A DNA stretch of 64,000 nucleotides from Candidatus Omnitrophota bacterium. GTDB lineage: Bacteria > Omnitrophota > Gorgyraeia > Gygaellales > Profunditerraquicolaceae. The stretch is from positions 5,413 through 69,412 of the forward strand of contig JAPLLZ010000020.1 in assembly GCA_026387265.1 (NCBI GenBank), written 5' to 3'. A model generated the notes under the pieces. The model did not search any database. It had not been told where the DNA came from and worked only from the letters and a program-made list of their open reading frames with translations. Of this stretch, positions 32,978-64,000 are shown one piece after another (positions within the stretch are counted from its first letter, which is position 1; each line of letters begins with the position of its first letter). A program made the position numbers and the translations under genes.

Positions 32978-33018
32978 TTATTACCATAATTAAAGTTGTT
33001 TTTAAAGCAGGAGGAAAT

Positions 33019-34228: not shown

Positions 34229-34292
34229 ATTATCATGCGATTCTTGTGGTGAGAATTTTTGGAGATGGAGTAGATTTTGAAGGAGTTAGAAA

Positions 34293-34898: not shown

Positions 34899-35131
34899 TA
34901 AGAAAAGGCCAGGCAACCTTGGAATTTACGCTGGCTTTTATTATAATGGTTGCTTTGATCGCAGGTCTTTTAAATTTATGGTCATGGTCAAATAGCCAGA
35001 TTGGTGGCCGCCAAGGCAGTTTTGAAGGCAGCCGGGTTGCGGCAGGGTCGAAAGATTCTCCGGGAGAGCCCGCTGTGCCTTATGGCGCCGGACAGATTAC
35101 CGATAGCCAGACGTACATGTTTAAGAAATAA
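34895..35131 (+). CDS. TadE/Flp-like small pilin (78 aa)
   Basis: MIRKGQATLEFTLAFIIMVALIAGLLNLW is present. It overlaps the upstream gene by 4 nt. Confidence 0.55.
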   Translation: MIRKGQATLEFTLAFIIMVALIAGLLNLWSWSNSQIGGRQGSFEGSRVAAGSKDSPGEPAVPYGAGQITDSQTYMFKK

Positions 35132-35146
35132 ATAGAGGGAGGTAAT

Positions 35147-36763: not shown

Positions 36764-36857
36764 GCTATATAATTTAAGTGTATGTTTAGATAATAACCAG
36801 GTCTTTGATTTATGCAATCGTAAAAATTTATTTTAGCTTTTAGCCATTAACAGAATA

Positions 36858-37619: not shown

Positions 37620-37767
37620 GGCCCAATCAACTGTGGAATACTTGGGGATGATTATTGTGATTATCGCCATATTTATCATTGCGGGGGTGTATTATCAGCG
37701 TAGCCTGCAGGGTAAATACCGGCAGGCAGGGGATTCTTTGGGTGGTGGTGAACAATACGCTCCTTAA
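37600..37767 (+). CDS. flp: Flp-family pilin (55 aa)
   Basis: MGKISRKAQSTVEYLGMIIVIIAIFIIAGVYYQRSLQGK is present. It is not in the ORF track and its coordinates come from manual translation. Its first 20 nt overlap the upstream gene. Confidence 0.6.
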   Translation: MGKISRKAQSTVEYLGMIIVIIAIFIIAGVYYQRSLQGKYRQAGDSLGGGEQYAP

Positions 37768-37791
37768 TCAGAAATACAATAATGGAGAAAC

Positions 37792-38637: not shown

Positions 38638-38638
38638 T

Positions 38639-40881: not shown

Positions 40882-40910
40882 TTGACAGCGTCTATCTGTG
40901 GTGTTATATT
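40882..40910 (+). promoter_or_regulatory. Near-consensus sigma70 promoter TTGACA-17-TATATT with an A/T-rich UP-like tract, 265 nt upstream of the giant ORF
   Basis: The -35 is TTGACA at 40882-40887. The spacer is 17 nt. The -10 is TATATT at 40905-40910. It is preceded by cgattttttac. Confidence 0.55.
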
Positions 40911-41175
40911 TGAGTGTAAGTTGAAAAGGTAAACTTAGAGTAATCTAAGGACACAAAGCCACGGGTCCTTAAGTCAAAGAAGTTCAAGGATAGCCGGGTT
41001 GCCAGGACCGACGGGAGTTGGAGTTGACAACTCGATTTTATTTGAGAACTTAATAAGAGATTTTAAAAACGATTTACAATCTGGTGACCTTATGAAAAGA
41101 AGCTTCATTAAAAAAATGAAAAGTCTTGGGGTAAGGGGAAATATTAATTTTTATTTTTTACTATTTAAGTAAAAG

Positions 41176-44100
41176 ATGAATATAAATCCGCAACAGACAG
41201 AAAACAGTATTAAGCAGCCAAAGAAAGAATTCAAGTCAAATTTCAAGGCTTGGATTCGCATGGTTGCTTTTATTCTTGTTGCTGTCTTTTTGCCAGAGCA
41301 GGTTGCTCAGGCTGTGGAATATGACTGGCGGGTAATCTGGAATAAGCCTACTGTTGGTACTATTGCACCAGCATACCTCAAGGATCTCAGTAATATTGAT
41401 TCTGCTTTAGCCATCCGCAACATACTTAAAGATATAGCGAATAAACCAATAAATTCAATCAGGGTTTCGTCCAATCTGACTATTAATCTGGATAAACCCT
41501 TAGAAATGTCCAATCAGAAAATAGATGAGATTACTGAGTGGCTGAAGGGAAAGCCGTGTGGCTCAAAAGCTCTTTATGACTATTTAAATTATGTTGGTAT
41601 TAAGGCCAGTGAGAGCGACATTGCGATTATCGCGCTTGCGGTTGATATACTCAATGATGTAGTTAAGCCGGAAGGCAGGCCGAAAGTTATCAAAAACTCT
41701 CTTTACGCTCTTGAGCAGGCAGCTAAATTTTTCGGAGCAAATCTATATCCGGTAGAGATTAATGCTAATACAGAGTTAAGCAATATCACTCCTTTTGTTG
41801 CTCATTTTAAATATGAGCATTATGTTTTGGTTACTCGTGTAACTGAGGATAAGGTTTATTATACCAAAGAACACAGGGAAGAGTTTTTGCCGAAAGCCAC
41901 ATTTTTGAGCAAGTTCAGCGGTTATGCTTTGACAAATGTATTGCCTCTGGAATCGAAAATATTGAGCCCTGTGGAAAGCAAGCAGATTCTAGGCGCTCGG
42001 GATCCTGATGAACCTACTCCTAATACTACTATGCCAAAACTTCCTGTAGTAACTCTACCATCTTCTAAACACTTTAATTCAACATCAATGCCAACATTGG
42101 GCGATAATATATATTACTCCACGAGTTTTGTGAGGGGGTTGAATGCTGCCACTGCGCCACAAACTCAAGATACACTTTATAAAATGGACGGAGTTAGTTA
42201 TCGCAGGCAAACTATTTTTAATACCCAAAATGGTAGTGTGGCAGGTTATACTTGGCTTCCGATTAACGTAGCAGCCAATACTTCTTATAAGCAGTTAGCT
42301 ATTACTTCCAGTAAATATAATAATGTTCTAATTGTTGTACGAACTCCGGATGTTAAAAATAACGCCGCTCCGTACCTTATTGGAGGTTCATTATTATCTT
42401 CGTTACATGAATATACCGGGACCTCGTATACATCCTCTGAGGGGCTGAGCCAATATGGAACACATATAAGGATTAGTTTGGATAAAGCCTCAGACAATTA
42501 TGGTTTTACCACGGTTTTGAAGCAGGATCCTGCAACGCTTGAATATAACTATGAGGCAGAGGCAGCTGGGCTTAAAGTTAAATATCCTTATGCCAATTCA
42601 GGAGAGATAGGTTCAGATCCGTATGATAGAACGGTTAAAGTTTATGCAAAATATTCTAATACTCCGGGCGGCGGTAGCTATGATTATGATGGGTATGTGA
42701 CCGCTGTATATGCAACTCCTAATCTTGGCCCAGGCGGCATGTTTGCTAATAATATGGATGTGAATTTAGTGGAAAAAAGAAATAATCTTACCTATGCTTT
42801 CTGTGGTAATCTAAGCAACTCCGCGATAGCTGCGCCGATAACCTTTACTTCATCTGGGCAGGATTATGCTTTTGCCGCTTGGGTGAATATGAAACCGCTT
42901 CATCTGCAGGTAGATACGAAGAACTTATTTAACGGTAATTATACTAATGTGGCGATGTGGGATTATCAGAGAATAACCGCCGCAACTAGAATTCAATTTG
43001 GAAAGGAAGTTTTTGATAGCTTGGCAAGCAATAATCCCGGCTCTTCTACGGAAGAAGGGAATCTTGTTTTTCAGGGGTGGAATCCAGGTCGGTCATCCAA
43101 AATTAAAGATATTTACGTAGAAGCGTTTAATGAACATTTTCATACAGCCACTATTTCTACCATCTTAGAAAAAGATGGTTGGATCGTGGGTGTAGATAAA
43201 ATGTATGCTGGTTATGGCGGCAGTATCGGCGATACCTCAAAAACTTACTTTTTCCCCATTCAAGCGTTGAAAACGCAGAGTTTTAATAACTATACGCTTG
43301 CTTCTCTTTGGACGCAAACACCTACTAGCCTAACGATAGAAGCTTTTAATAACGACTATAGGGCCTTTGATAGCTCTAACCCGATTTTATACCCAGGTTA
43401 TAGATCCTACTATGATATAGGTAAAGATGGCAGCTTGAAGTTATGGGGTACGTTTAATGATAAAAATGATGTTGTGTTAGCTTTAAATCATAATGGTACC
43501 TGGGATAATCCGGATGATGATTTTTATGTTTATATTCCTGATTCTTCAAAGATTCTCAATTCTTCAAATAGCAATGGAAGCTATTATGATTTTAACGTAG
43601 GCAGTGGGCTTGTTTTAATAGAGCCGGGGAATAGATATACTGGCACTTCACCAAGGATCGGAGGGACGTTAGGTTCCACAGTTATAGAAAAACCGGCTTC
43701 AGGTTCAGTCTCACCGGAACAGTACAGCTTTTATTCTATAGATTTAGGGATTGATAAGGCAACGGGTAATTTTAATGGGCTTGCTATTAGCCCATATGAT
43801 GCGGATCAAAATGGCAAGATCAGTATTAAAGAATTAAATCAAGCTTATGATATCGTAGTGGGAGATACTCAGAAGCAAGTGGATACAATTAGTAATCTTA
43901 AGGAGACTGATTTCGAGCAGTGGCTTAAGGATACGGGTCACTATGATGAGTATTGTGGTACTATAAACGGTGTTTATGTTGACTATGGACTCGGCGGGGG
44001 GTATAGCAATTTTTATATCCAGATGGAGATAATGGATGAATATGATCAGGCTCAGTTAGATGCTAAAAATAAAGGTTCGCTTTTAGATAATTTTACATAT

Positions 44101-47100
44101 GTAGATCCAACAACTGGTGATAAGGTTACTTTGCAGGATATATCCACTTCGACTAAAACAATGCTTGATAATCCAGATAAAGTGGATCTTCTTGATTTTT
44201 CAAGTAATTTAGTTATGGCATCAATTATTGATCAAAATGCTTTCCCTAAAGCAGAGGGTGTTGCCCAGAATAAAAATGAAGAGGCAATGGGCGTAAATTT
44301 TAAGGCTACGGTTAAAACAGGCATACAGTGGAATGAGAAAGCAAACCGTTATTTATATACTACAGCAGAAGTAGAGTTAAATACTGATCAAGCCAATATA
44401 GCTAAAGGCCCAGACTTTGCGGTTATCAAGGATGGGTGGAAAGGAACATTTAATCTTACTCCCGAAACTCTTTCTTCTCTTCGTGCTGAATATTATGAAA
44501 AGGGATATCGGGATTTGGCAGTTAGTCTGGTAGGTATAAATGCATATGGTACTACTTGGGGCGATATAGGAATTGGTGCTGTAGTTGTGCTTACTACGGT
44601 CGCCGCCGCTGCAGCGACTTTTTATATAGGTGGCGCTGGTGGCGCAGTAGTTGCCGGTGGATGGGCTACCGCAGGAGCCATCGCGGGCATTTTAACAATA
44701 AATGTTGGAGTATCAGTCTTTAATGCTGCTTTAATAAAGAACCATCTAACCGGAGAGAAACTTACTGATGGTGAATTGTTTGTTTCCATAGGTCTAGGGC
44801 TTATTCCAGCGGCTGGTGGGATAGCCGGTAGATTTATAGGCACCGCTGCCATGGCAGGAACATTGGCTAGTGTTGCTAGTAAGACTCTTGTTGTTGGTAG
44901 CAGGATGGCTTTTATTTCTGGGCAGATAACCCAGGCTAGTTCTTATATCTGTAATATGACGCTTGACCCAACAACAAAAAAATTTACAACTCATGGTCCG
45001 AGCGTTCTTGAGGCGGGATTTTCCTTAGCTAGTGGTTATCTTTATGGCGGTGTTGCGGCTTTAGCGCCGGTTACTTCAGTTTCAAGTTTCTTCTTAAGGA
45101 CGGGTTTAAATTTCGCTTTAAACGAAGCTGTTTTACAAGGATCTAGCCTGATTACTACGGGTAATTTTGTCGGATTCAACAGCTGGGATGAAGTAGGCAT
45201 GCACATGCTTATGCTGGGATCTGCCGGGCTTTCCTCAGGAGCTTCCTGGTTATCTGGTTATACAAAACATGTCGGAGAATTAAATAAGCTTGTTGTCTCC
45301 GGGTATGCTATGGCGGAAGGACCGGGGGCGAAGATTATCAATAGTACTTTATTGACAACAATGTTTGGTGGCAGTACTAAAATTTTAACTAACGCTATTG
45401 CTGGCGGCAGGACCTTCCTTCTGATCGGCATGCTTACTGATCCGCTTTTTACCGGAAAAGAAGGCAATCCTACTTGGGAATCAACTTTTGGGCATTATAA
45501 AACCGGTTTGATTTATGGAGGGATATTTGGCATGGCTGAAGCTATACCGGCGTTTAGCAAGATTGGCGCTCAGTCTGCGTTAGCTCAAGGTATAAAATGG
45601 GGTATTGTCGGAGGCGCTACTAATGTCACAAGAGGAGCGATAGATAGCGTTTTATTTACGAAAACTCCGTATACTTGGAGCCAGGCGGGGATTGATTTTG
45701 GGGTAGGATTTATAGAGGGCGGATTATCAGGCTTCGGCGCCACTAAAGCGTTTCCTAAAGCTTTCTTAACCAAGGGGATTGCCCGGTTGGGACTTAACAT
45801 TGCATTAACTTCTCTAGTTTCAGTATCCGGAGGCCTTATAAGCAGCGCTATTACGGGTAATTCATATAGCTGGAAACAACTAGGAGTTGATACGGGAATT
45901 GGTGTTTTAGCCGGATTAACCGCAACAGCCTTACCTAAATATGTATCCTGGGTTAGCAAGTTAGGTAACGCTAAATTTTTTGTAGAACATCCTAAGCTCC
46001 TTCCTTTAACTAAGTTTGGCTTAAATTTAGGAGCAAGCCAGTCTGCGACATTCTTAGCCTATATGGGTACAGGAGCAGTTTTTGAATTAAAAAACAATGG
46101 AGTAAGCGGCATTGATATGGGTAAAGTGGGGGCTGAGGCTGCCAACTATTGGAAGATCTGGGCTCCTTGGGCAAATCCTGCTGAGGATAGTTGGGCCAAT
46201 ACTATAAAATTTGATATCTTTGGTGAAAAAGACGTAAAATTAAAATATTTGACCATCGGAGCTGGATTGTCCAGCTTATTATTTTTAAGTGTGGTTTCGT
46301 CTTCTGCCTTTGCTACTGCTAAAATAAACTCACTTGAAGATCTGCCGAAATTAATTAAGGATAACTACCAGGAGAAGATAGCGTCAAAGACATTGGGTGA
46401 AAAAGTTAAAGCAATAGCAATCTCAAGCGGCAAGATGTTTTTATTTGGTATGGGGCTTGATAGTATAGGCAGGACTTATAACGAAGCCCATAAATACTCC
46501 AAGATTACAAATGAAGCTGAAGATGCTTTGATGGGGGCGATTTTCAATAATTGGGGAGTAGGAGGCTGGACACAAGTTTATAAAGATGAAAATGGCAATC
46601 TTAATCGTAAATTTAATTGGGATGGTATTTTGAATGACCAGAATGGTAATCCTATTAAAAATGAAAATGGCGATTTCCAAAGAACAGGCCTTCTTTCCGG
46701 TATAGAAAATTCTGCCATATCGGGAGTAATATTTGGCCCGCTATTTTATTTCTCTATGCCTTTATTCGAAGTACTTGCTCCTAATCTGCCATTTGGCATA
46801 GGAAAAACCGTTCAATCAATTCAGTCATTTAACTTTGGCATCACCGCCGGGAAAACCGCCAATATGACTTTGTCCACATTACGCGCAGATAGAGTAAAAT
46901 TAGCGTTATCTACCGTGGCAAAGTTCGGCCTGGTAACTATTGTCGGCGGTGTTATTGATGAAGGTATTAGCGAACCGATAGCCGGGGCGATAATGTATGC
47001 GGGGTTAATGCCGCTTGTCGGTGGAAAAATTTCCGGCGCTCAACTAAACTTCTTTACCAGCATGCTTGCCGAAGGAGTATCTCCTTCGCCATTTGAAACG

Positions 47101-50100
47101 ATTGATATAGGCTTACCTGCAGAAAGCAGCCTTCTGCAGAGTATTATTCATTCCAATGGCGAAAATGTTATAAGTATAATTACCCATTTGGAGAATAATC
47201 CGCAATTGTTATCCAGAGAAGCAATAATTGCAGACCTGATGTCTAATAATACGTTTACCTTTAATAAGGATAAAGAAGTAGTAGGTTCTTTTGTAGATGT
47301 GGCGTTAAGCGTTAAGCAGCGTCAGGAAAGCGCCAAGGCAACAGGAGAGAAATGGGATGTTGAAGCAAAACAACTTGGTATGGGCGTTTTACTGCTAAAT
47401 TTAGCAGAAAAGCAGCTTACAAGCCAGTCGTCTAGCGCTATATTGCGCTCTGTGGTCGGAGCTAATTTTGCCGCTGGAAAAACAACCATGGCTCTTATGA
47501 TACAAGATGTGTTGACTAGTAAGTATGGAGATAAGAAAATCCTGTTTGTTACTACTCAGAATCCAGGCGAAATTAGAAAAAATGCTGCTTTTAAGATGAG
47601 AGGCGATAACGAGGTTAATGTTATAGGTGAAAATGCAGAAGGTAAGGTTACTGCGGATGTTAAGGCCGGGCAGATAAACATAACTAGCATTGCTGGTTTT
47701 GAGGCGTTAAAGGAAGAGAAAAAATTAAGCGATGTTTTTGTGATTGGTGATGAACCTCAGGCAGGTATGGCCGCTCCAGCCAGGGTCCATGGAATTATGG
47801 AGATTGTTTGGAAAAACTTGACTCCTGAGGAGCAAATCAAATTTAGCGCTTATAAAAATATTCATGAAACAATCTTTACGTTAGCAAAAGATCAGGCTGA
47901 GCTAGCGAAACAGGCCTCTGTTGAAAATGGTTATTGGCGGCAAATTATTAAACATCAGTTGAATCCTAATGGCGTATTTTCAAGAGATAGGTTTGAATTT
48001 GAACAGGCAACAGAAACAAAGCTTATTACTGCGTTTGAGAATAGGGATAAAAAAGAACTTACGCCTGCCGAAACAGAATTTTTAAAAGGTTTTGGTGATG
48101 ATAAAAAAGGGGATCTTTATCGTGATCACGAAACTCTTTATCGTGAGGCCAAGCAGAAATATGCGCAAAGCCTGCTTAGGGATAATGCTGCGCAATTGAA
48201 GGAATATTTTAATGGGGCAGCGTATGGCTTGGTTACTGGTGAAGAAGGTATGGAGTTTTATGGAATTAAAAAAGATGCCGATGGAAAGATGATACAATAT
48301 TTTACACGTAATACCGAAAACGGAAATGCTTTAGATAGGACTATCTTTAGCGATGGTGAGGTTGATGGGGAAAGGTTAAATGCCCGCGCGGTTATGGTAT
48401 CGGTAAAGCATAATGCTTCTCCTGAGGTGTGGTTAAACTCTTTAATGAGTAAAGCTGAGAATTCTGTCAGCTACTCCGATGCTCTGGGTGCTTCCAAAGG
48501 ATACATCTTGTTAACTGCCAGCCCGGATGGTTTTAAACCCACCTTTGATGCTATTGGTGCAAGGCTTTATAAGTTAGATAGAGATCCAACTTCCTTAATA
48601 TTATCCCAAATGCAGGTTGATGTTAATTCTTCTCCTCGTGCTGATGCTATGGCTAATGAAGCTATCGCCAGAATAAGCGACTCAGAGGGCAAGAGAGTAG
48701 TTGTTCTTACCGGAAATGATCCTGAAAGCTTAAAATTGTCTACAATTATGGTTGAAATTCAGCAGGGAGTTAGAGCTGAGCTTGGCGAACTTACACTTAA
48801 CAAAGAGAATATTACGCAGGCTTGGGAGAAGTTCAAAAAGGGTAAGAATGGCGCAGGAAAGATTAAGGAATGGGGAAAATTAGGTTATTCTATCGATAAG
48901 GTTGAAGGGGTATTTAGCCATCTGCAGCAAGAAGAAGGATCTTTCAGTAAAGATTTATCTGCTGCTAAAATTATGTTTGTTGATGAGGGAGGGGAAGGCG
49001 CATTTACGTTGAATGATATTGGAAATTACATAACGGCTATGCAGAAAGGTGAGGGTATCTCCGAGAGTGATAAATTATTAGTTTTTGTGCGCGGTTTATA
49101 TGATGCTTCAAATGTAGGTAAAAAAGTTGAGGGGGCTGTTACTAATCTTGAGGGGTTAATGATTGTTAGCAATGTTGCGTTAACTACCGATATTGTGCAG
49201 GCCGGTGGAAGATTTAGTATTAAAGGTGTGTCTAAAGAATTGGAGGCAAGAAGGATCGCCGGAGAGCTTAAAGAGTCAATTTCTCTGGATGATCCACGTA
49301 TAACCAATGCTGAAGTCGCTGAGATAGTTAAACAGCAGGGAGAAAGTAAGCGGCAGGCAGCTCTGAGGGTGAATAACAGGCTGTTACTTGAGGCCAATGC
49401 TGAGAATGTAGTGCGTATCGCCGGCACAAATAGTGTTGCTGATAGGTTAGAGACAGCAAGGATTTTAGGGGAGTTTGAGGAGAAGATGGATTGGGTGATT
49501 AAGCCGGTGGTAAATAGCCCTGAAGAAGCAGAGAATATGGCTTTGGTTAATCCGGTGGTAAATAGCCTCGATGAAGTATCCAGAAGTACATTAAATCAGG
49601 ATGAAGATTTAGCGTACGACAATGATAAAGATAATCCGGCATTAACCCCGGAAGGCAAAAAATTTGTTACTGTGGTTAATGAAGTCAATAGTTTTTCAGA
49701 TGACAAACTTAAACAAATCGCTTCGCTTGCTGAGCAGGTAGTAGCCGCCAAAAATAAATTAACGGGAAGACTTGAAGAAATAGCGGCTAACAAAGATATG
49801 CCTGTTCAGGAGCAAGAACAAGGAAGATCTCGGCTGGCTTTTGATATAATCTATAATCTTAAGACTAGCGGGATTCCAATAGACGATTCATTGTTGAAAA
49901 CTTTATTAGAAGTTGCAAATTTGAACTCAGGCATAAACCATATTGGTGACATTAAGATAACTTTACAGGATTTAGTAAGCGGGGTGGTTATAAAGGAACA
50001 ATTCCCAAGAGATTGGGATAATGTTTCCAGCGCCTTGGTCGAAAACGGCTGGGCCACGAAAATAAGCGACGAAATGATCCGTTTAACCATCGATCCTAAG

Positions 50101-52983
50101 AAAGTAAGAAAGCCGATTTTGGAACAATTTATTAGCCGGGGCATAGATCCAGCGAAGGCTTTCCCTGTTTTACAGCAGTCTATAAAGCAGGCTGTAACTT
50201 TAACCCCAATTATTGACGCTAGCTCTAGGGTTGCTGAAGCAAAGCAGGCCTTGGAAAAAGCAAGGAAAGATTTCGCAAAAGTAAGTAAGAAACAAATTAT
50301 ATTTACGAAATCAGATGAAATTAAAGTTACTTCTGTTGCTGTCGAAAAAGCAGCTTTGGCTATAGCGGAATTAATGATGGATGAAGCCTGGAGGGATTTA
50401 GCTATTGCCATTGCCAGCCCGACAGTTTCTCCAGTTGCTATATTATTAAAGAAAGCTGAAAAAGCGGATGCTAAAGTCTATAAACAATTAAAGGCAATGT
50501 ATGGTCCGTTAGTTGATAGCTTGCAAGCCTGTAAGAGCGCTTTGACCATTCCAAGCAAAATAGTGAATTTTAGATTTAGATCGGCATTTAATCAGTTATA
50601 CAAGAGCCTCTTCTCTACCCCGGTGTCTTTATTTAATAAATCATCAGATCCATACAGCTTAACTATTCCTTTTGAATTAGGCCTAGAAACTCCCGGTAGT
50701 ATCGAAGAATTTAACAGGTTAATGCTGCTTAATGAATCCAAGAAAAAGACGATCCAGGCGGTAGCGAAAGAGGCATTTATTAATGATATTAAGAATCAGG
50801 CCGGGCAATTCTTCACAGAAGATGAGGTAAAAACAGAGAATATAGACACAATAAGCAAGGCTTGGGCTGTTTTAAGGATGATTAATCAGCTTCAATTCCT
50901 ATCCGAACCAGATTCTAATAAGGATGAAGCCCAGCTGAAAAAAGCTAGACAAAGTATTGTTGACTATCTTAACGGGCAGATTAATCCCGAAGAGGAAGCG
51001 GCAGATCAAGTTAAAGAAGAGCAGCCAGTTGATGTGAAGGCTCAGAATGTTCAGCAGCAGCCGGCTGGAACAGTTAAAATTACCACTGAAGGTCCAAAGG
51101 AAGAGTTATTAGCGGATGATAAACTAGAAGCAGAAGCGCAAACACCAGCCAGACAAGCTGTAATTGATGCAGTGAAGTCGGTAAAGTCAAATGAGTCAGG
51201 TAAAGCTAGTATTGGGATGGTTTTTGCGATGGCGGCAACGGGAATTGCAGCTATATCTTTACCTATAATACATGGGATTGGTGGAGTAAATGGGTTGATT
51301 GTGACAGCAGCAGCTATTTCCGGTGTGGGTGCAGTTGGTGTATGGTTAATTAAGAAGTTTAGGCATAACAGATCAACAAATGCTACTCAGGAGGCTTCAG
51401 ATAAGCAGCCTTCTAAAGCAGTACCACCAGTTCAGCAGCAGAATAATACTATCTCTACTAGTATAGGTGTAGGTTCAGTTGTAGCAGGGTCTTTAGTAGA
51501 TGTTGAATATCAAAATCCCGGCAATACTAGTGGTCGTTCACTAGGGCCTAACATTTTTGGAAGAATTAATAGTGTCTTTGGTCGTGTTGCTAGTGGTTTA
51601 GCCCCGCCCATAGCCCTTGCCAAAACCTTTTTCTCAAAGGTTTATGGTTTATTGAATACGAGAAGCAATGTAGGTGCATTAGTTGCAGGTGAATTAAAGA
51701 GTGATGAAGCAAAGAAAGATGAAGTTGCAGGTGCCCGGAGTCTACCCTCCAGAAATGGAGAAGAGGGGCAGGATGTAGAAGGTGCGTCTAGTAATAGAAG
51801 TAAAACGTCCATAGGGGACGTAAGAGTTAATGATTCCAGGGTTATACCTGACAATAGTATTAGTAGTAAGATTGTCAGATTAATCAGCAGAATCACAGGT
51901 TCCATAGGTGCAAGCGTTAAAGAAGCAGGTAAAATAGCAGTAAAAGTATTAGAAGTATTAGGATCAAGGATTAAGGCATTTGTAGCAGGCAGCAAGGCAG
52001 CAGCTGCCCAAAATAGAGCTGCAGTAGTAAATAATGGAATCGTTGGTGAGGCAGTAGATGTGGTAAAAGATGCCGAAACCCAAGATTCTATTCGTGCGTA
52101 TGGCATCCGCAGCTGGATTAATAATGTTTTTAAGAAGATTGTTGTAATTCCGACCGTCCATAAAGATGGCAGACCAGTAGATTTGGTCATTCCCGCATTA
52201 AATAAATATAAAGGAAACGATAAAACTGTTGTTGGCAGCTTATTAATGTTCATATTCAATGGGCTTTCCCATGATGCGGAAGGTAATATGAGCAAGCTTG
52301 GTGTAATTTCCAGAAGAATATTCAGCGGCAACCCTGAAAAAGGCTCTGTAGTTAAGTCAGAAGAGGAAGATGCATTGCCTAAAGCCAGTGTTGAGATTGG
52401 TGTTAGTAATGTTGTAGAAGATTTTAGAAAGTTGACGAGAAGTATCTCTGACGTTGTAACCAGGTTACGCGGTAATCAGCCGGTTATGCCGGATCCGGAT
52501 GACGTAGCGTTGCTTAGTGCCATAAGTGCTAAGAAAGAAGCATTAATAGATGCAGCTAGAACAAAGGCAGAGATTGACGGAGTTGAATTTGATGCTGCAG
52601 TTAATTATTATGCTCAGGCAAAAGAATATATTTGTGATCATGATAAGGCAAAGAAATTAGCGTATAAGATTGTCTGGGGTTATTTATCAAATAATAATAT
52701 TGATGTGAGGGATACTCTTTTAGCCAACGATAAGAATTTGTATTATTCTTTAATTGATATAGCCAAAACTATTAATTTAATGTCAATTCAAGAGTTAGAG
52801 AATTTGGCTAATAATCCCGAATCAAATACATTAAGCAGGATTGCTCAAACATTGTATGCTAGAGAAACTAATGCAAAGGCAGGGGAAGCAATAGGAGTTA
52901 GTGAAAAAGCAATAGGAGTTAGTGAAAAAGCAATAGGAGTTAGTGAAAAAGCAATAGGAGTTAGTAGTGGGTATTGCAGATAA
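41176..52983 (+). CDS. Giant protein 1 (3935 aa)
   Basis: It is a single uninterrupted ORF. The N-terminal TM or signal anchor is MVAFILVAVFLPEQVAQAV, followed by a C39/papain-like Cys-His peptidase-like segment. A very long Asn/Tyr/Gly/Thr-rich beta-rich region contains an EF-hand-like loop. A ~580-aa block of glycine-zipper TM segments follows, then Walker A/B and SF2-like NTPase motifs and a coiled-coil-rich C-terminus ending in a 4x AIGVSEK repeat. Its codon usage matches its neighbours. Confidence 0.75.
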   Translation: MNINPQQTENSIKQPKKEFKSNFKAWIRMVAFILVAVFLPEQVAQAVEYDWRVIWNKPTVGTIAPAYLKDLSNIDSALAIRNILKDIANKPINSIRVSSNLTINLDKPLEMSNQKIDEITEWLKGKPCGSKALYDYLNYVGIKASESDIAIIALAVDILNDVVKPEGRPKVIKNSLYALEQAAKFFGANLYPVEINANTELSNITPFVAHFKYEHYVLVTRVTEDKVYYTKEHREEFLPKATFLSKFSGYALTNVLPLESKILSPVESKQILGARDPDEPTPNTTMPKLPVVTLPSSKHFNSTSMPTLGDNIYYSTSFVRGLNAATAPQTQDTLYKMDGVSYRRQTIFNTQNGSVAGYTWLPINVAANTSYKQLAITSSKYNNVLIVVRTPDVKNNAAPYLIGGSLLSSLHEYTGTSYTSSEGLSQYGTHIRISLDKASDNYGFTTVLKQDPATLEYNYEAEAAGLKVKYPYANSGEIGSDPYDRTVKVYAKYSNTPGGGSYDYDGYVTAVYATPNLGPGGMFANNMDVNLVEKRNNLTYAFCGNLSNSAIAAPITFTSSGQDYAFAAWVNMKPLHLQVDTKNLFNGNYTNVAMWDYQRITAATRIQFGKEVFDSLASNNPGSSTEEGNLVFQGWNPGRSSKIKDIYVEAFNEHFHTATISTILEKDGWIVGVDKMYAGYGGSIGDTSKTYFFPIQALKTQSFNNYTLASLWTQTPTSLTIEAFNNDYRAFDSSNPILYPGYRSYYDIGKDGSLKLWGTFNDKNDVVLALNHNGTWDNPDDDFYVYIPDSSKILNSSNSNGSYYDFNVGSGLVLIEPGNRYTGTSPRIGGTLGSTVIEKPASGSVSPEQYSFYSIDLGIDKATGNFNGLAISPYDADQNGKISIKELNQAYDIVVGDTQKQVDTISNLKETDFEQWLKDTGHYDEYCGTINGVYVDYGLGGGYSNFYIQMEIMDEYDQAQLDAKNKGSLLDNFTYVDPTTGDKVTLQDISTSTKTMLDNPDKVDLLDFSSNLVMASIIDQNAFPKAEGVAQNKNEEAMGVNFKATVKTGIQWNEKANRYLYTTAEVELNTDQANIAKGPDFAVIKDGWKGTFNLTPETLSSLRAEYYEKGYRDLAVSLVGINAYGTTWGDIGIGAVVVLTTVAAAAATFYIGGAGGAVVAGGWATAGAIAGILTINVGVSVFNAALIKNHLTGEKLTDGELFVSIGLGLIPAAGGIAGRFIGTAAMAGTLASVASKTLVVGSRMAFISGQITQASSYICNMTLDPTTKKFTTHGPSVLEAGFSLASGYLYGGVAALAPVTSVSSFFLRTGLNFALNEAVLQGSSLITTGNFVGFNSWDEVGMHMLMLGSAGLSSGASWLSGYTKHVGELNKLVVSGYAMAEGPGAKIINSTLLTTMFGGSTKILTNAIAGGRTFLLIGMLTDPLFTGKEGNPTWESTFGHYKTGLIYGGIFGMAEAIPAFSKIGAQSALAQGIKWGIVGGATNVTRGAIDSVLFTKTPYTWSQAGIDFGVGFIEGGLSGFGATKAFPKAFLTKGIARLGLNIALTSLVSVSGGLISSAITGNSYSWKQLGVDTGIGVLAGLTATALPKYVSWVSKLGNAKFFVEHPKLLPLTKFGLNLGASQSATFLAYMGTGAVFELKNNGVSGIDMGKVGAEAANYWKIWAPWANPAEDSWANTIKFDIFGEKDVKLKYLTIGAGLSSLLFLSVVSSSAFATAKINSLEDLPKLIKDNYQEKIASKTLGEKVKAIAISSGKMFLFGMGLDSIGRTYNEAHKYSKITNEAEDALMGAIFNNWGVGGWTQVYKDENGNLNRKFNWDGILNDQNGNPIKNENGDFQRTGLLSGIENSAISGVIFGPLFYFSMPLFEVLAPNLPFGIGKTVQSIQSFNFGITAGKTANMTLSTLRADRVKLALSTVAKFGLVTIVGGVIDEGISEPIAGAIMYAGLMPLVGGKISGAQLNFFTSMLAEGVSPSPFETIDIGLPAESSLLQSIIHSNGENVISIITHLENNPQLLSREAIIADLMSNNTFTFNKDKEVVGSFVDVALSVKQRQESAKATGEKWDVEAKQLGMGVLLLNLAEKQLTSQSSSAILRSVVGANFAAGKTTMALMIQDVLTSKYGDKKILFVTTQNPGEIRKNAAFKMRGDNEVNVIGENAEGKVTADVKAGQINITSIAGFEALKEEKKLSDVFVIGDEPQAGMAAPARVHGIMEIVWKNLTPEEQIKFSAYKNIHETIFTLAKDQAELAKQASVENGYWRQIIKHQLNPNGVFSRDRFEFEQATETKLITAFENRDKKELTPAETEFLKGFGDDKKGDLYRDHETLYREAKQKYAQSLLRDNAAQLKEYFNGAAYGLVTGEEGMEFYGIKKDADGKMIQYFTRNTENGNALDRTIFSDGEVDGERLNARAVMVSVKHNASPEVWLNSLMSKAENSVSYSDALGASKGYILLTASPDGFKPTFDAIGARLYKLDRDPTSLILSQMQVDVNSSPRADAMANEAIARISDSEGKRVVVLTGNDPESLKLSTIMVEIQQGVRAELGELTLNKENITQAWEKFKKGKNGAGKIKEWGKLGYSIDKVEGVFSHLQQEEGSFSKDLSAAKIMFVDEGGEGAFTLNDIGNYITAMQKGEGISESDKLLVFVRGLYDASNVGKKVEGAVTNLEGLMIVSNVALTTDIVQAGGRFSIKGVSKELEARRIAGELKESISLDDPRITNAEVAEIVKQQGESKRQAALRVNNRLLLEANAENVVRIAGTNSVADRLETARILGEFEEKMDWVIKPVVNSPEEAENMALVNPVVNSLDEVSRSTLNQDEDLAYDNDKDNPALTPEGKKFVTVVNEVNSFSDDKLKQIASLAEQVVAAKNKLTGRLEEIAANKDMPVQEQEQGRSRLAFDIIYNLKTSGIPIDDSLLKTLLEVANLNSGINHIGDIKITLQDLVSGVVIKEQFPRDWDNVSSALVENGWATKISDEMIRLTIDPKKVRKPILEQFISRGIDPAKAFPVLQQSIKQAVTLTPIIDASSRVAEAKQALEKARKDFAKVSKKQIIFTKSDEIKVTSVAVEKAALAIAELMMDEAWRDLAIAIASPTVSPVAILLKKAEKADAKVYKQLKAMYGPLVDSLQACKSALTIPSKIVNFRFRSAFNQLYKSLFSTPVSLFNKSSDPYSLTIPFELGLETPGSIEEFNRLMLLNESKKKTIQAVAKEAFINDIKNQAGQFFTEDEVKTENIDTISKAWAVLRMINQLQFLSEPDSNKDEAQLKKARQSIVDYLNGQINPEEEAADQVKEEQPVDVKAQNVQQQPAGTVKITTEGPKEELLADDKLEAEAQTPARQAVIDAVKSVKSNESGKASIGMVFAMAATGIAAISLPIIHGIGGVNGLIVTAAAISGVGAVGVWLIKKFRHNRSTNATQEASDKQPSKAVPPVQQQNNTISTSIGVGSVVAGSLVDVEYQNPGNTSGRSLGPNIFGRINSVFGRVASGLAPPIALAKTFFSKVYGLLNTRSNVGALVAGELKSDEAKKDEVAGARSLPSRNGEEGQDVEGASSNRSKTSIGDVRVNDSRVIPDNSISSKIVRLISRITGSIGASVKEAGKIAVKVLEVLGSRIKAFVAGSKAAAAQNRAAVVNNGIVGEAVDVVKDAETQDSIRAYGIRSWINNVFKKIVVIPTVHKDGRPVDLVIPALNKYKGNDKTVVGSLLMFIFNGLSHDAEGNMSKLGVISRRIFSGNPEKGSVVKSEEEDALPKASVEIGVSNVVEDFRKLTRSISDVVTRLRGNQPVMPDPDDVALLSAISAKKEALIDAARTKAEIDGVEFDAAVNYYAQAKEYICDHDKAKKLAYKIVWGYLSNNNIDVRDTLLANDKNLYYSLIDIAKTINLMSIQELENLANNPESNTLSRIAQTLYARETNAKAGEAIGVSEKAIGVSEKAIGVSEKAIGVSSGYCR

Positions 52984-55900
52984 ATCATTAGGTATTAATG
53001 AAAAGAATTTTAATTGGATGAATGGTAAGAATTGCTTTATTACTATTGCGCCTTTGGCGATAAGAGCTGCATTGGAAGCAGCAAAGAACAAGATTGAGGC
53101 TTCTGGAAAGCTTTGGACGTTAAGAGTAGCGGTGCAGACTTACAATGATTTGGTTGATGAATACAATGCCAGCCATCAGGATAAGTTGGAGCGTTTATTT
53201 GTGGCTAAGGTTGCCCAAAGCAGGATCAAAGAATTGATAGACCAGGAAGTTAGCTTTGAAATAACGGAAAATTTAGGCGATAGTTTCCATGCGATACTTC
53301 CTTTCGGTTATGTAGAAAATGAAAGCAGCCTATCTATTACTGCGATGAATGGTAATGTTGCCGATCATAGAAGAACTGTTAATGTAGCTGACCTGGATTT
53401 CTCCGGAACCGGAGTCATTGTTATGGTGGCTGAAAGTGCGAAAAATTTGATTACCAAAGAAGAGTCTGATGCCGCAGAAGATGGCTATAGAAGTACAGAT
53501 GATAAACCGATTACCGGTGATACCAATGTTAATACTGATACAGCAAGTAAAGATACGCATAATGATAATAATGATATAAATAATAACAATAATAATGGCG
53601 GAGAAGGTAAAGGTAACGGCGGGAATGATGGCGGTAATACTGGCAAGGATCACGCAAATAAAGCTAACAATGTTAATAATAATGATGGTAAGGATGGTGA
53701 TAGTGATCTGGCAGGAGAAAAGATATCTCAAGACTTACCTGAAACAGGTAAAGTAGCCATAGAAGATGCAATAGTTGATTCTTTTAATCGGATTACAGCT
53801 AATAACCTTTCTCCTCCGGAAGCCATATTTGCTAACCTCGCTAATACCCTGCGTATTGTAGTTAACCAGTTGAAAGAGGAATTATCTGATCTTACTCGTG
53901 CCAATACCGCCAGTCTTCGTAACGCTATAGATGTTTTTAATGAGCTTATCGCTATTTTAGATAATTTAGCAAATAATCCGATAGTATCCTTAAAATATTT
54001 TCTTATGTTAGCCCGCCGCGAAGAAGAGGATATTGTTACTCCCCTTCTGAAGACGCTTATCGGAGCGATTAAGGACCGCGGCTTGAATAATCTGCATGGG
54101 CGTTATTTCCGCGCTGCCCGCTTAATTGCACATAGATATGGCCTGCCTTATTCTTCGATGGTTGAGCTTGCCAATACCTTTATATTACTCAATGAGACAA
54201 ATGATTTCATTAACGCGTTAAAAGAAGAAGATTTTGTAAGAGCCGAATTGGAAGCAAGGGCTAAAGAAACAGAGATTGCTTCGCTGGCTACGTTCGCGCA
54301 CAATGGCGGATTTGTAGTAATGAATAATGCAGCAGCTTATGACAGATTAAATAACGTATTAAATATTTTAAACAATTCTGTGGGTAGATATACATCAGGC
54401 GTAGGGGTAGCGGTAAATGTGGTAAAGATTAAGTTCGGGGAAACTCGGGCAGGCTTAAACAGCATAATTGGTGCATTATCAGCAAGCGTATCCGGCATAT
54501 TTAGCAGGTTAGGTTCACTTTTCGTAATCACGCCGGCATTAGCAGGGCAGGTAGAATCAGACGAAACGGCCAGTACATTATTATCAAGTTTAACCAGAGC
54601 TTCTGACGAGTTATCTCAATTCCCGGCAAACTTACCAACAGCTAAAACAGTGGTCAATACTGTTGAAACAGCTAAATCTACCAACAGCCAGTCAATAACA
54701 GCAGAGAATAAGACTATAGCTTCTGATATATTAAATAACGTATTAAATATCTTAAACAATTCTGTAGCGAAATACGTATCTAACATAAAGGTAACAATAA
54801 ATGCGATAAAGGTTGGGGTTACCGGGGCAGCTAGAGTTGGCTTAAGCAGCATAGCCAATACGTTATCATCGAGCTTAACTAACGTTTCTAACAAGTTATC
54901 CTCATCCCCGATCAGCTCGCTATTGACTAGACTTGCAACAGTAAACGAAAGTGGCATTGTTAATGTGGGATTGAGTATTGTTTTAGCTCCTGCTGCTACT
55001 GTTTCCCTTGGTATTGTGGCACCGATAGCAGTTCATTTATTCGGGTTAGTCTTAGGCGGCGTAGCTGCGTTAGTAACAGGCTTTGTTTTAGTAGCAGGTT
55101 TATCTAAGGTAATTAATAACTCAGTTTCAACTCACTTAGCAGCTTCAACCGCTTCTTTATCAGCTTCTCAGGATGTCGATGTCAATAATGCCGATTTAAC
55201 TAGCGCAACAGCTAAAACAGCAACAGGCACTGTTGAAACAGCCAAATCTATCAACAGCCAGTCAGTCACAGTAGAGAGCAAGGTTACAGTCTCCGGTATA
55301 TTAAATAACGTATTAAATATCTTAAGCAATTCTGTAGCGAAATACGTATCTAATATAAAGGTAACAATAAACGCGATAAAGGTTGGGGTTACCGGGGCAG
55401 CTTCACCAGTTGCCGGATCCACAACAGTTCCTGCAGCTTCATCTACTTCTTTACCAGCTTCTCAGGCAGTAAATACGAACAATGCTAATTTAACTAAATT
55501 AGCAGCAAAGGTATTGAATTTGGTTCATAGCCTTATCGCTTCTATAAGGAATATCTTAAACAATCTTTCTTCTAAGTCTGAAATCAAGGGTGAAACTTCT
55601 ACTAAGGTTCAAGCCAATATTTTGGGTAACTCAATTTCTTCCTTAGCTCCTCCAGTTAATGGTTTAATTGCGCGTTTTGTAAAGAATGCAATTAACCAGT
55701 TAATCAACGCAATCAAAGGAGAGGAGAATGGACATGAAAAGAATAATAGAAATGAGAGAGGAAATAGCAGCAATAGATACACAGTACAGAATAAGACGGC
55801 TCCAGGAAATGAGACAGGCAGCGGTATTAGAAATGCTAAATTTAAGGAGTATATCAATAGAAAAGCTGGTCAATTAATTAATTGGCTTCGTACAATTTTA

Positions 55901-61400: not shown

Positions 61401-64000
61401 CGCTAATGGCGGAGTAAGCGGTAATGTAGGCGCTAGCTTCTTATCTACGGAACAAAACATCGATGCTTATGTGTTTTTCAACATGTTAAACAATAAGACT
61501 GATAAGCAAGAATATAAGAAGATAAGCGATAATATCGCCGGCTGGATTAAAACTATGTATAATTCTGAGACCGGAATATTTAACCGCGGGCAGACGATCG
61601 GGGCCGATGGAAATGGTTCTTCTGATACCACTTTTGCTACCGATGTCCAGAGCATGGCAGTGATGGCTTTCGGCAGAACCGGGTTGCAGGAAATGGGAGT
61701 AAACATAGATAATCTTTTATCGGCAACAGAAAAGAATGCAAAGGTTACCGTAGATTATGTGCTGCCGGATGGAGCTAAAGTTTCTGTCACTGGATTTGAT
61801 TTTGATAGCAGTAAAGACATGGTTTCTCCGGAGTGGACTGCGCAGATGATTGTTGCTTATGAGATTGCAGGCGAAGAAGAGAACGAAAAACAAGCTGTTT
61901 ATTACCGCGCTGAAATGGAAAAAATGGTTTATAAGGGCACTTTACCTTATGCTACCGAAGAGGGCGCAGTTACTGGCCATGGTTGGTATACTCCTTATGG
62001 AAAGATTTCTTTAGCTGGTACCGCATATCTTCCTTTTGCTAATTGCTGGGATAATCCGTTTACTGTAAATATAGAAGGAGTTAAAGGTTATGGTTTAGAG
62101 GGTATTTTAGCAGAACAGTCTAGATTATTGCTACAAGACTATCCAGTTGTAGTTAAAGGTTTACAATCTACTAATGCACAGGATGATTTAAATGGTGCTC
62201 AAGACACCCTAAAAGTTATTGAGGATGCCATTAAATCTGCCGAAGCTAATCTGGAAGCACTCAAGGAAGTTTCTAAAGACTCAGATGCATATTTCGCAAA
62301 ATTAAGCAAGATAGTAAATATAACCTTTAAACAGCTTTTAGCGCCTGATAATAGCTCAAGGCCGCAAGGGGTAGGTAAATATATAGGCGCAAGAGTTACT
62401 TCGCCTAAGGGGACTGGTGATTGGGTTTGGGCGCAGCATTGGGTGTATTATAAAGCCTGGACTTATTATGGTTCTACTGATCCGACTGGCCCTGCGCCGA
62501 CTAGCACTCCTACGATTGGCGCCAGAATTCCTGCTGATGACGGAGATTGGGTAGGGACTGAACAATTAGTGCATTATGATGCTTGGGATTATTATGGCCC
62601 TACTGATCCGACTGGCCCTGCGCCGTCAGCTGATCCTGTTGATGGGGCAGTGGTTGATGCTGATGGCGGGCGCTGGGTGGGTAATGGTACGGAATGGATA
62701 TGGCAGCGTGATGAAGAGCATCATCCGGCTACAGACATTATGGAGGTTCAGTGGAAATGGGAGGGTTGGGTACAAGAACATCCAGCTACCAAGGTTCTTG
62801 AGCCATATTGGCAGTGGCAGGCTTATGTTAGGGATCCGAGCAATGGTACTGATAGCAGATGGCTAAAGATTTCTAAAATACCAGCCAAGGCAGAAGAATA
62901 TGGTGAATTTGATGAGGTAAAGTTTTATGCTCTTGAGTCAGTGAATGGTACAGTTTACTTTAAGGATAATGGTTCTTCTAAGTATGTTTGGCAGATAGGT
63001 AAAAATGAATTTACAAGTTATAAAGCGGTCATTAATTCTAATGATGCCGGCGCCTGGCTTCCTTTAATAGATGGTATGGAAAAACCGCTGGGTGCAGTTT
63101 CTATAGGTGTGGATGAAACGGCTGCTTATTATCTTTTTACAGATAAAGAAGGGAATAGCACATATTATAAAAAGGTTGACGAACAGACTTTTTATTGGCA
63201 GACAAGTTTAAAAGCGGCTAAGGCCTACAAAGAAGCATTGTCATCTGAGAATGGCGCTTGGTTATCTTGGATTCCAGGTGTTCCTGTTCCTAATGAGGGT
63301 GTAATTACACGTTATGCAACAGAGAATGATAAGCAGGTTCTTTATTACTGGCAGTCAAGCGTTCAAGCAACGAACAAATATGTAGAAGCGCTTAGAAACT
63401 ATGGTTTTTGGTCACCAGCCACTTCAGAAATAAATACATCTGAAGATGTAGTTACCTGGACGCCAGAAGAGATTAAGGCGAATGGCTATATCGTAAAGAT
63501 TGATGATTCTAATTCTCAACATGGCTGGCTTACTATAGGTGGACAGACGATTGAAGTGATCTTTACTTCTGGGTACAAGGGTGGACAGGAATATATTAAT
63601 GCTTTAAAAGGTGTTTATGAAGAAGGCGTTAGCAATAGTTTCGGTGGCTATATCGAATTTGGTGCTAATGGACAGAGAACTTGGATTAACAGTGTTGCTG
63701 CCAGCCGCGTAAATACTTATACATCAAAAACCACAAATATAGATCCTTCAACTGGGGCAGTTAATAAGGAAGTGCGTTATTTTGTTCCGGTTGTTACTCC
63801 TCAGGGTACAGTTTTTGTACCTCAATCGCTTAAGTCAGAAGTTAACACCTATATAGGTGGTCTGATACGCAAGCAAGAGGGTACTGGAACGGTTACTGAA
63901 TATACTTATGATGGTACTTTTGATACTTATGGTGTTGCCCATACAACTACCACTAAAGTAATTGAAACTGGAAGAATTATATCTAAAAGTGTTGTTACCT
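58459..64000 (+). CDS. Giant protein 3, 3'-partial (more than 1847 aa). Its N-terminus is a cellulose-synthase-like processive GT2 with C-terminal TM helices, followed by a long extracytoplasmic region.
   Basis: Its ATG overlaps the ORF2 stop as TGATG. No stop is found by manual translation in frame 1 to position 64000, so it is absent from the supplied ORF track. Motifs are KKGSNLNYTL, DKDS, GHNAYIRKALL, VSEDL and KQMTKY. TM helices lie around aa 300-480. W/Y-rich tandem motifs occur later. Confidence 0.65.
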   Translation, partial: MYFTANENVDSFMAKALSLPEETRTPEQKEVLARVAFYRANNITFVARPRPVKDNLATMRAGTFKKGSNLNYTLKLAERISEIMIDRGISLEEAQTIAIQEKEEYRLGCIEGNLWIGDVKLLLDKDSIIPTGISRLTIAEFDNDEKLAYIQCASVPNNENENYFTKIIGYATRIYYDFAFSHSALTGSVIPLVGHNAYIRKALLSQIGWWPENRVSEDLSAEFDFNIRGFHGKYADISGMRFEEAISNNIITEAKQMTKYVFGAAELIFNQPKDWKKEGIFTKQLSNILGSKEISVWKKIDLMIYIVNLFCSAMLLPPLLLSPLFPISIYGLVGPVLAYLFSGTLVAVLGYMRKNAVGFEKGKYGSFKQILSRHMKYMLPFGSMVVCFSIFSIKGLWAYFTGKKLEIGSSDTGKQLDKEITFSKALKNMASIIKEQAVLVGVYLVMLILSGRFAQPYLGIDVMGCSYWLFLGEVILLGIFNPSLIYGFKNSVIKPFSANLIIAEAHNLQPIGQIIGALRHPSVAGSFLKMFRLSYRIACFKLAEENGIRGSPKASIRALSYVLANSETGRKVSAEYISSKLSAKDAAFLNAQLDLHEAGKTERAGFKAQVKSFKNKKQSSVTQQLSQEEIITQVEDVMAKLQEAVAVKDSTKAFIAMDDLGRIVPLINGETERTKYIYQIAEVLDLQIDNNEDTLRILYKAIATVGELTLTIKDITKRQIPVHKIRSLRASSNEEIAQQARFILKEVVKPAIAKNRKSTTNKVSLTPAPAKEDSKQNKSKGSLSVFLQRATKGILTGLIIAIIFLGGIFQAGCSYKPASIPTSTTSSEQAAENTIDSKDVLDLSAILEKAGVEIVDNYMDGTLVQNTKTGLLASHSGNSTTADWGMTYDQALAVIDFAKSGKTEEAKRILDFYNTQYVQKGFFGFANAYDVTDGHITENVQQVGPNAWLGIAILQYAEATGDDSYIELAESIAGWIANLQTANGGVSGNVGASFLSTEQNIDAYVFFNMLNNKTDKQEYKKISDNIAGWIKTMYNSETGIFNRGQTIGADGNGSSDTTFATDVQSMAVMAFGRTGLQEMGVNIDNLLSATEKNAKVTVDYVLPDGAKVSVTGFDFDSSKDMVSPEWTAQMIVAYEIAGEEENEKQAVYYRAEMEKMVYKGTLPYATEEGAVTGHGWYTPYGKISLAGTAYLPFANCWDNPFTVNIEGVKGYGLEGILAEQSRLLLQDYPVVVKGLQSTNAQDDLNGAQDTLKVIEDAIKSAEANLEALKEVSKDSDAYFAKLSKIVNITFKQLLAPDNSSRPQGVGKYIGARVTSPKGTGDWVWAQHWVYYKAWTYYGSTDPTGPAPTSTPTIGARIPADDGDWVGTEQLVHYDAWDYYGPTDPTGPAPSADPVDGAVVDADGGRWVGNGTEWIWQRDEEHHPATDIMEVQWKWEGWVQEHPATKVLEPYWQWQAYVRDPSNGTDSRWLKISKIPAKAEEYGEFDEVKFYALESVNGTVYFKDNGSSKYVWQIGKNEFTSYKAVINSNDAGAWLPLIDGMEKPLGAVSIGVDETAAYYLFTDKEGNSTYYKKVDEQTFYWQTSLKAAKAYKEALSSENGAWLSWIPGVPVPNEGVITRYATENDKQVLYYWQSSVQATNKYVEALRNYGFWSPATSEINTSEDVVTWTPEEIKANGYIVKIDDSNSQHGWLTIGGQTIEVIFTSGYKGGQEYINALKGVYEEGVSNSFGGYIEFGANGQRTWINSVAASRVNTYTSKTTNIDPSTGAVNKEVRYFVPVVTPQGTVFVPQSLKSEVNTYIGGLIRKQEGTGTVTEYTYDGTFDTYGVAHTTTTKVIETGRIISKSVVT

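Follow-up and report, generated by a model that had tools for sequence, protein, structure and literature searches.

The 64,000-nucleotide (nt) window analyzed here, which is the whole stretch taken from positions 5,413 to 69,412 of contig JAPLLZ010000020.1 of a Candidatus Omnitrophota bacterium (assembly GCA_026387265.1), carries three very long, overlapping open reading frames (ORFs) downstream of a Tad-type pilus cluster and a riboswitch-containing leader; the features of the giant gene, its leader, and the Tad-type cluster are on the forward strand. ORF1 (41176..52983) starts with ATG and encodes 3935 amino acids, ORF2 (52967..58459) starts with GTG and encodes 1830 amino acids, and ORF3 (58459..64000) starts with ATG and stays open for at least 1847 codons to the last base of the window. 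The end of ORF1 shares 17 nt with the start of ORF2, and ORF2 runs into ORF3 through a TGATG overlap. Taken together, the three frames cover over 22.8 kb and comprise over 7,612 codons, and the end of the gene lies outside the window. The sizes and positions of these frames, both overlaps, and the lack of a stop codon for the third frame within the window had been described in an initial annotation made from the DNA sequence, but its reading of the region as three separate, translationally coupled genes was not borne out, as both junctions lie inside one continuous frame in relatives. We consider it very probable that the region from 41176 to beyond 64000 (>7,600 codons) is a single giant Omnitrophota gene that has suffered two frameshifting lesions and sits behind a riboswitch. 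We assign the pieces to one ancestral gene because relatives carry both junctions inside one frame or one glycosyltransferase family 2 (GT2) domain, and the appearance of three coupled genes arises because of the two frameshifts. The base composition was even throughout the region of the giant ORFs, and this uniformity led us to reject an assembly chimera.

Relatives of the giant gene were collected by a search of species-representative genomes with an alignment of the N-terminal module, which yielded 61 related loci at 27-82% identity. Nearly all were from metagenome-assembled genomes labelled Candidatus Omnitrophota or Omnitrophica, with the best relative being 82% identical in the N-terminal module. 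The giant ORF runs off the fetched DNA in 57 of the 61 loci, and thus extends for at least 3,600 codons where 10.8 kb was present. The other four loci (L010, L022, L042, and L055) have a giant ORF that ends early, after 216-2,158 codons; these may be more frameshifted copies or truly shorter genes. Over longer distances, ORF1 showed 55% identity across 2,745 residues to the Omnitrophota protein P0080 and was collinear with a second relative, P0091. When ORF3 alone was used as the query in a genome scan, nothing was found.

The apparent overlap of ORF1 and ORF2 marks the first lesion, a +1 frameshift (52958..52983) beside a perfect 21-nt tandem repeat of 3.8 copies (52886..52965) that encodes (EKAIGVS)n at the end of ORF1. 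Three-frame translation revealed that degenerate heptads, VGIADK and SLGINEK, carry the repeat on in the frame of ORF2. The Omnitrophota relative P0091 (5,667 amino acids) is collinear with ORF1 and then with residues 6-166 of ORF2, which match its residues 5141-5305 with 44% identity (E = 4e-31), and it bears a heptad repeat of its own, (EDLRKQE)n, at the position of the 21-nt repeat in the window. The contig of P0091 (L065) crosses the equivalent of this junction in a single frame with 0 stops in 11,581 nt. A metagenome scan across the junction returned as its only match the contig already known from P0091.

At the second junction, the break falls within a GT2 domain. The end of ORF2 reads ...LTVTIQVPVYKETFEQTIK..., corresponding to the first strand of the GT2 fold, and Pfam places the remainder of the domain in ORF3, where the catalytic core (58819..59478; PF13632, E = 3e-24) carries DKD and SED motifs; this agrees with the cellulose-synthase-like GT2 proposed earlier. 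The conserved CDDGLM motif of the domain is out of frame with ORF2 and is encoded instead in the ORF3 frame at 58423-58461, after the TGA at 58420 and upstream of the ORF3 ATG. A query made from the fused junction recovered 79 homologues, and the best 8 of the 79 carry the series VPxY(N/D)E...(27-34 residues)...CDDGLM...KKGSNLN...LLLDKDS...SED in a single polypeptide; similarly, both GT2 halves map to a single gene at locus L001. Compared with the homologues, ∼17-19 residues of GT2 helix α1 are missing in the window, the result of an out-of-frame deletion of ∼50-58 nt (frameshift 2; 58420..58461). The position equivalent to QxxRW is QxxKY, read as QMTKY in the window, and the window GT2 is not an intact one-chain GT-A fold with DDG, DxD, (T/S)ED, and Q(R/Q)xRW motifs. 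Programmed frameshifting was considered and rejected for lack of a canonical slippery heptamer; a T4 run (58441-58444) is the sole candidate for low-level -1 slippage into the CDDGLM frame. A 1,783-residue neighbor of one GT2 homologue (P0002) was examined as a possible relative of ORF2 and was rejected because the two are unrelated.

A third lesion lies upstream, among the Tad-associated genes. Two overlapping ORFs of 756 and 123 residues (29196-31759) are a single ORF in 7 of 7 relatives, and DNA alignment places a clean 43-nt deletion after 31391 (gap at 31380..31400) where the window splits them. In the sequence as given, a Tad-associated gene thus also carries a frame-breaking lesion. TadB, TadC, and the pilins are without breaks.

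The leader of the giant gene begins with a sigma-70-type promoter (40882..40910), TTGACA-17-TATATT with a TG extension, that matches the consensus at 11 of 12 positions and lies ∼265 nt from the ORF1 ATG; the promoter region could be aligned from its first bases in close relatives by using nhmmer. The promoter and the length of the leader were as originally annotated, whereas the riboswitch within it had been missed. The segment at 40919..41007 matched the c-di-GMP-I class (cyclic diguanosine monophosphate) riboswitch model RF03167 with 62.5 bits (gathering score 59, E = 2e-12). It is followed by an expression platform in the form of a terminator hairpin (40995..41043), of which the 5′ arm is the aptamer 3′ strand GCCGGGTTGCC, pairing with GACAACTCG and followed by TTTTATTT; the folding energy of this hairpin was -18.7 kcal/mol, and the minimum free energy fold of the leader was also examined. 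With respect to the variant, the window element scores best with the GGC model yet has an A at its conserved G: the RF03167 consensus reads GACGCGAAg, and the window and 13 relatives carry A at that position (ACAAAG or GCAAAG). The G in place of the A47 of canonical aptamers, which we take to be the defining position of the GGC variant, was accordingly absent from the window and these 13 relatives. Because the aligned aptamers have A where the GGC model has its conserved G, we file the leader element as a predicted riboswitch of the c-di-GMP-I class, with no variant assigned and with c-di-GMP as its presumed ligand.

This element recurs across the related loci. Rfam aptamer matches were found in 16 of the 18 related loci tested, two of which scored best with RF01051 (∼59 bits versus 35), and a purpose-built covariance model located the aptamer in ∼50 related loci. 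In ∼45 of the 61 species genomes, the aptamer precedes the start of the giant ORF by 58-260 nt, with the figure rising to ∼50 when more distant copies are included. Across the ∼50 loci, 97.9% of cells were paired and 129 cells showed compensatory changes; none of 500 shuffles reached the observed values, and slid controls gave 28-50% pairing. Among the 43 leaders that were folded, 40 have an aptamer 3′ strand (GCCGGGYUGCC plus flank) that pairs with a conserved UUGACARCYCGG further downstream, to which a U-tract is directly attached, with terminator energies of ∼-9 to -32 kcal/mol and co-variation of both arms. The aptamer and the terminator are mutually exclusive, and therefore ligand binding should give read-through, as in an ON switch. 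The element resembles the known c-di-GMP-I (GEMM-I) riboswitches of RF01051 and RF03167 in reaching gathering scores, in its two-helix architecture with covariation, and in its terminator-type platform; it differs from them in that the gene it would gate is a giant one of over 22 kb, carried by a phylum that is uncultured, ultra-small, and probably host-dependent. The classic role of c-di-GMP-I riboswitches is the control of pilus, adhesion, and surface genes. In four loci (L031, L034, L037, and L039), an additional c-di-GMP-I aptamer is found 2.7-9.6 kb before the giant gene, and in three others (L035, L044, and L056) the sole aptamer is a remote one, located 3.5-9.8 kb upstream. Riboswitch control may therefore extend to further genes of the pilus cluster.

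The giant product is a multi-pass membrane protein with an N-terminal anchor, a C39 peptidase, and large extracytoplasmic β-rich parts; it also carries an internal SecA-like ATPase, a membrane GT2, and an (α/α)6 glycosidase-like domain. Its N-terminus comprises a signal anchor (residues 21-45) and a C39-like cysteine peptidase (residues ∼110-260), together spanning 41236..41955. The peptidase matched PF03412 over residues 175-253 with 23.2 bits (cut-off 22), and its Cys128 and His215 are invariant in the N-terminal-module alignment. Translation and a hydropathy scan revealed a Gly/Ala-rich hydrophobic region with several transmembrane helices at residues ∼1120-1990 (44533..47145), which is kept in P0080, P0081, and P0091, and a transmembrane helix pair follows at residues 3346-3389 (51211..51342). 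A crude Kyte-Doolittle scan counted ∼23 hydrophobic segments in the giant protein. Several modules listed in the initial annotation were recovered, namely the membrane anchor with the C39-like segment, the glycine-zipper membrane region, the embedded P-loop NTPase (with Walker A and B motifs and a SecA-like fold), and an HExxH segment, present as HESVH at 57065-57079 of ORF2; of the several Ca-binding-like loops also listed there, only one, an EF-hand-like loop (DADQNGKISIKE), was confirmed.

Between the membrane blocks of ORF1 lies a divergent SecA-like ATPase motor (residues 2046-2735; 47311..49380) with Walker A GANFAAGKT and Walker B DEPQ. When its AlphaFold2 model (predicted local distance difference test score, pLDDT, of 78) was searched against the PDB with Foldseek, the top 12 matches were all SecA or SecA2 (E = 2e-9 to 7e-7, with probability 1.0 at E = 2e-9). 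No SecA signal was obtained when PDB sequences were searched with the ATPase by phmmer or with an eight-sequence ATPase profile. A word-index homology search with residues 1900-2750 of ORF1 returned nothing, although exhaustive HMMER searching with the ATPase region did find a relative that was 64% identical over the matched stretches and ten relatives in all; the seven that were looked up were all partial, and six of these were labelled Candidatus Omnitrophota. The motor is like the SecA translocase ATPase in its Walker A and B motifs, its two RecA domains, and an insertion in the first of these, but it is only ∼10% identical, it is embedded in a membrane protein between transmembrane blocks, and it shows no evident helical scaffold, wing, or C-terminal domain.

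ORF2 consists of low-complexity and repeat regions with ∼7 transmembrane helices and, at its end, the first GT2 strand. A 117-residue module occurs both upstream (57752..58102) and downstream (59968..60312) of the GT2 membrane domain, and its two copies share 79% identity (E = 1e-66). The GT2 resembles membrane synthases of the BcsA/PgaC type in its PF13632 core, its DxD and (S/T)ED motifs, the transmembrane helices after the catalytic domain, and its presumably c-di-GMP-controlled context; it differs from them in having QxxKY for QxxRW, in lacking a PilZ domain, and in being truncated, split, and flanked by the duplicated 117-residue module. Further along ORF3, after a transmembrane or lipobox-like anchor, is an (α/α)6-barrel glycosidase-like domain (60982..62064) that shares 37% identity (E = 9e-72) with the C-terminal domain of Omnitrophota PilZ proteins. 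Its AlphaFold2 model (pLDDT 86, predicted TM-score 0.87) found its best Foldseek matches in MmpH and glycoside hydrolase family 76 (GH76) mannanases (TM-score ∼0.62). Omnitrophota possess many such proteins of ∼650 residues (P0093-P0135) with an N-terminal PilZ and a C-terminal (α/α)6 glycosidase-like domain, and one PilZ-(α/α)6 gene was seen at locus L064 among genes for GH2, MFS, and PKD proteins. The translated C-terminal region (62356..64000) is Trp/Tyr-rich and of β-type, is cut by the window end, and gave no family matches in Pfam or NCBIfam.

A combination of domains of this kind has been published. Giant genes of Omnitrophota were reported to encode a C39 (or S8) peptidase at the N-terminus, close to a signal peptide, along with many transmembrane helices, divergent SecA DEAD and preprotein-binding domains, and glycosyltransferase and glycoside hydrolase domains; they exceed 30,000 amino acids, are preceded by a cluster of gspD/E/F, rcpC, Rotamase_2 peptidyl-prolyl isomerase, and class-III-signal-peptide genes, and have small PilZ genes and genes for carbohydrate uptake or hydrolysis after them (West-Roberts et al. 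2023, bioRxiv 10.1101/2023.11.21.568195). The same class was described with a criterion of an ORF larger than 20 kb (Seymour et al. 2023, PMC10066038) and was catalogued at ≥10k amino acids by Nielsen & Lui (2026), who found giant genes to be hypervariable regions; an "Archaeovorin"-type example is the V. archaeovorus LiM protein of 39,678 amino acids. The role proposed in the giant-gene papers is attachment to a host or prey and degradation of envelope glycans, with which the contact-dependent surface or attack function guessed at in the initial annotation agrees. The accompanying suggestion of an undescribed system did not hold up, since the architecture and gene order match the published giant genes. 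The shared features are the N-terminal signal anchor with C39, the many transmembrane helices, the glycosyltransferase and glycosidase-like domains, a divergent motor that is SecA-like at the level of the fold and has no scaffold and wing domains, mostly unannotatable sequence, the Omnitrophota lineage, and a position directly after a Tad/type II secretion system (T2SS)-like cluster with peptidyl-prolyl isomerase, RcpC, secretin, ATPase, GspF-like, and pilin genes. The differences are that the window sequence exceeds 20 kb on the single-gene reading and not otherwise, that its frame is broken twice, that the searches turned up no methyltransferase, NUDIX, GGDEF, or dockerin domain and SecA_DEAD was undetectable by Pfam, and that the riboswitch leader is unmentioned in those papers. 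More generally, no mention of a riboswitch was found in the searchable papers on Omnitrophota giant genes, and the link between a c-di-GMP riboswitch and the giant gene, which we did not find reported in the searchable literature, appears to be the new element here.

The cluster upstream of the giant gene (23012..39496), recognized by Pfam matches, consists of genes for a peptidyl-prolyl isomerase (starting at 23012), RcpC (23929), a secretin with a C-terminal TonB_C domain (24917-26539), a 719-residue fusion of ParA-like TadZ with the TadA ATPase (26541-28700), a DUF192 protein, unknown proteins, pilins, TadB (37792), and TadC (38639). The diagnostic matches were PF16976, PF00263, PF13614 plus PF00437, and two of PF00482 (T2SSF). 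With 10-11 Flp-like pilin ORFs, the pilin-like ORFs carrying GQST(L/A)EY, the cluster contains the Tad pilus components RcpC/CpaB, RcpA/CpaC, TadZ, TadA, TadB, TadC, and Flp pilins, and it accords with the Tad locus of nine or more pilin paralogs noted earlier; the prepilin peptidase TadV was not identified among the Tad genes of the window. A synteny comparison across relatives, which the initial annotation had proposed, placed TadB, TadC, and pilins ahead of the giant gene at 20-38 of the related loci. On the reverse strand beside the Tad locus (16096..19741) are genes for a FIST sensor, a GAF-HisKA-HATPase kinase, and a REC-GGDEF response regulator with the motif GGDDF rather than GG(D/E)EF; this set is a possible local source of c-di-GMP for the riboswitch. 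Between TadC and the riboswitch is a gene of the 23S-rRNA-intervening-sequence protein family (PF05635; 40107-40511) that has no counterpart in the 61 related loci and looks like a local insertion. The window also contains a glycan biosynthesis cluster (13-16155) with several GT2 genes, GT4, GT9, a GT4-family WecA-like gene, radical SAM/B12 enzymes, methyltransferases, YdjC, and DUF2079, and a tRNA gene (19969-20043; RF00005, 53.9 bits) between the signalling genes and the Tad region.

We propose the following working model. RNA polymerase would start at the near-consensus promoter and enter the c-di-GMP-I riboswitch. Without ligand, the aptamer 3′ strand would pair with the downstream arm to form the intrinsic terminator with its U-tract; with c-di-GMP bound, the aptamer would keep its 3′ strand and allow read-through, such that high c-di-GMP would turn the giant gene on. 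The giant protein may serve as a surface apparatus that attaches to a host or prey cell and remodels its envelope glycans together with the adjacent Tad-type pilus, and the SecA-like motor might aid in the export or insertion of the protein's own extracytoplasmic segments.

Several points weigh against this reading. The SecA likeness exists only at the level of the fold, with a TM-score of 0.35 on a multi-domain model; hhalign comparison of the ATPase with E. coli SecA gave no signal, and Pfam scans of all eight members of the ATPase family returned no SecA_DEAD match. The product encoded in the window, at least 7.6k amino acids, is far smaller than those of the giant genes of the 2023 report (>30k amino acids) and of those catalogued in 2026 (≥10k amino acids). 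The best Rfam family for the aptamer is the GGC variant, with c-di-GMP as the presumed ligand, and the ON direction of the switch is deduced from architecture. The surface-apparatus function of the giant protein is presumed from the literature on the class. Each downstream frame begins with a start codon placed right at the break and continues without a stop over more than 5.5 kb, and an AGGAG is located 6 nt upstream of the ORF2 GTG; three functional polypeptides, or lesions of very recent origin, would explain this no less well than decay. Finally, assembly or consensus errors in a mixture of strains could account for all three lesions.

The last of these points leads to the alternative that survives best, although we regard it as unlikely: the gene would be intact in the organism and all three lesions would be artefacts of assembly or consensus calling, possibly from a mixed-strain population. 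One lesion does lie at a perfect 21-nt tandem repeat, which is hard for assemblers, every frame is still open downstream, and giant genes are hypervariable regions in these genomes (Nielsen & Lui 2026). The flanks of the 43-nt deletion, however, are clean, well aligned, and non-repetitive; no such breaks occur in TadB, TadC, or the pilins, nor in the 40 kb occupied by other genes, and deletions of 43-58 nt are rarely produced by short-read or long-read errors. Considerably less probable, in our judgment, is a genuine operon of three translationally coupled giant genes in which the splits were selected and the polypeptides assemble after translation. The start codon at each break, the AGGAG before the ORF2 GTG, the TGATG overlap, and the open frames of 1830 and >1847 codons are what such coupling would look like, but the AGGAG merely belongs to each 21-nt repeat unit, P0091 and L065 are continuous over the first junction, the neighboring gene carries a clearly disruptive 43-nt deletion, and the ORF2/ORF3 break cuts a Rossmann-type GT2 after its first strand, with ∼17-19 residues gone and the DDG untranslated. 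Despite the C39 domain and the one EF-hand-like Ca loop, it is highly improbable that the product belongs to a known toxin or adhesin type such as RTX/MARTX or Rhs, or that it is a type I secretion substrate carrying a C39 processing domain. The initial annotation had named RTX, MARTX, and Rhs-type proteins as examples of a placement that would speak against its proposal, but at E ≤ 0.01 neither Pfam nor NCBIfam gave a match to RTX, MARTX, Rhs/YD, haemagglutinin, or ABC-transporter families. The C39 domain sits at the N-terminus of a multi-pass membrane protein and is not joined to an ABC exporter, and the relatives are all Omnitrophota giant proteins.

We return, then, to a single giant gene, which at this locus is either freshly decaying or misreported by the assembly. 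On balance, we lean slightly toward the window being a natural decay variant in which the giant gene and the Tad-associated gene are broken and the switch is kept; re-initiation of translation may still yield pieces 2 and 3. For annotation, the three "giant genes" are to be read as one frameshifted giant gene, and the check for a domain split across adjacent ORFs applies to other giant-gene calls in metagenome-assembled genomes. To our knowledge, few bacterial genes are as poorly understood as the giant genes of Omnitrophota, and we know of no report on how they are controlled. A c-di-GMP riboswitch found throughout the phylum, with its clear terminator platform, would provide a concrete and testable regulatory model that fits the PilZ genes and GGDEF domains previously recorded near giant-gene loci, and the short leader RNA can be tested in vitro although the organisms are uncultured. 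The conserved riboswitch is the part of the locus worth following up. Our somewhat favored view is that across the Omnitrophota a conserved c-di-GMP-I ON-riboswitch gates the gene for a giant surface protein, in which case c-di-GMP would be the signal that commits these ultra-small, probably host-dependent cells to making their giant attachment or attack protein.

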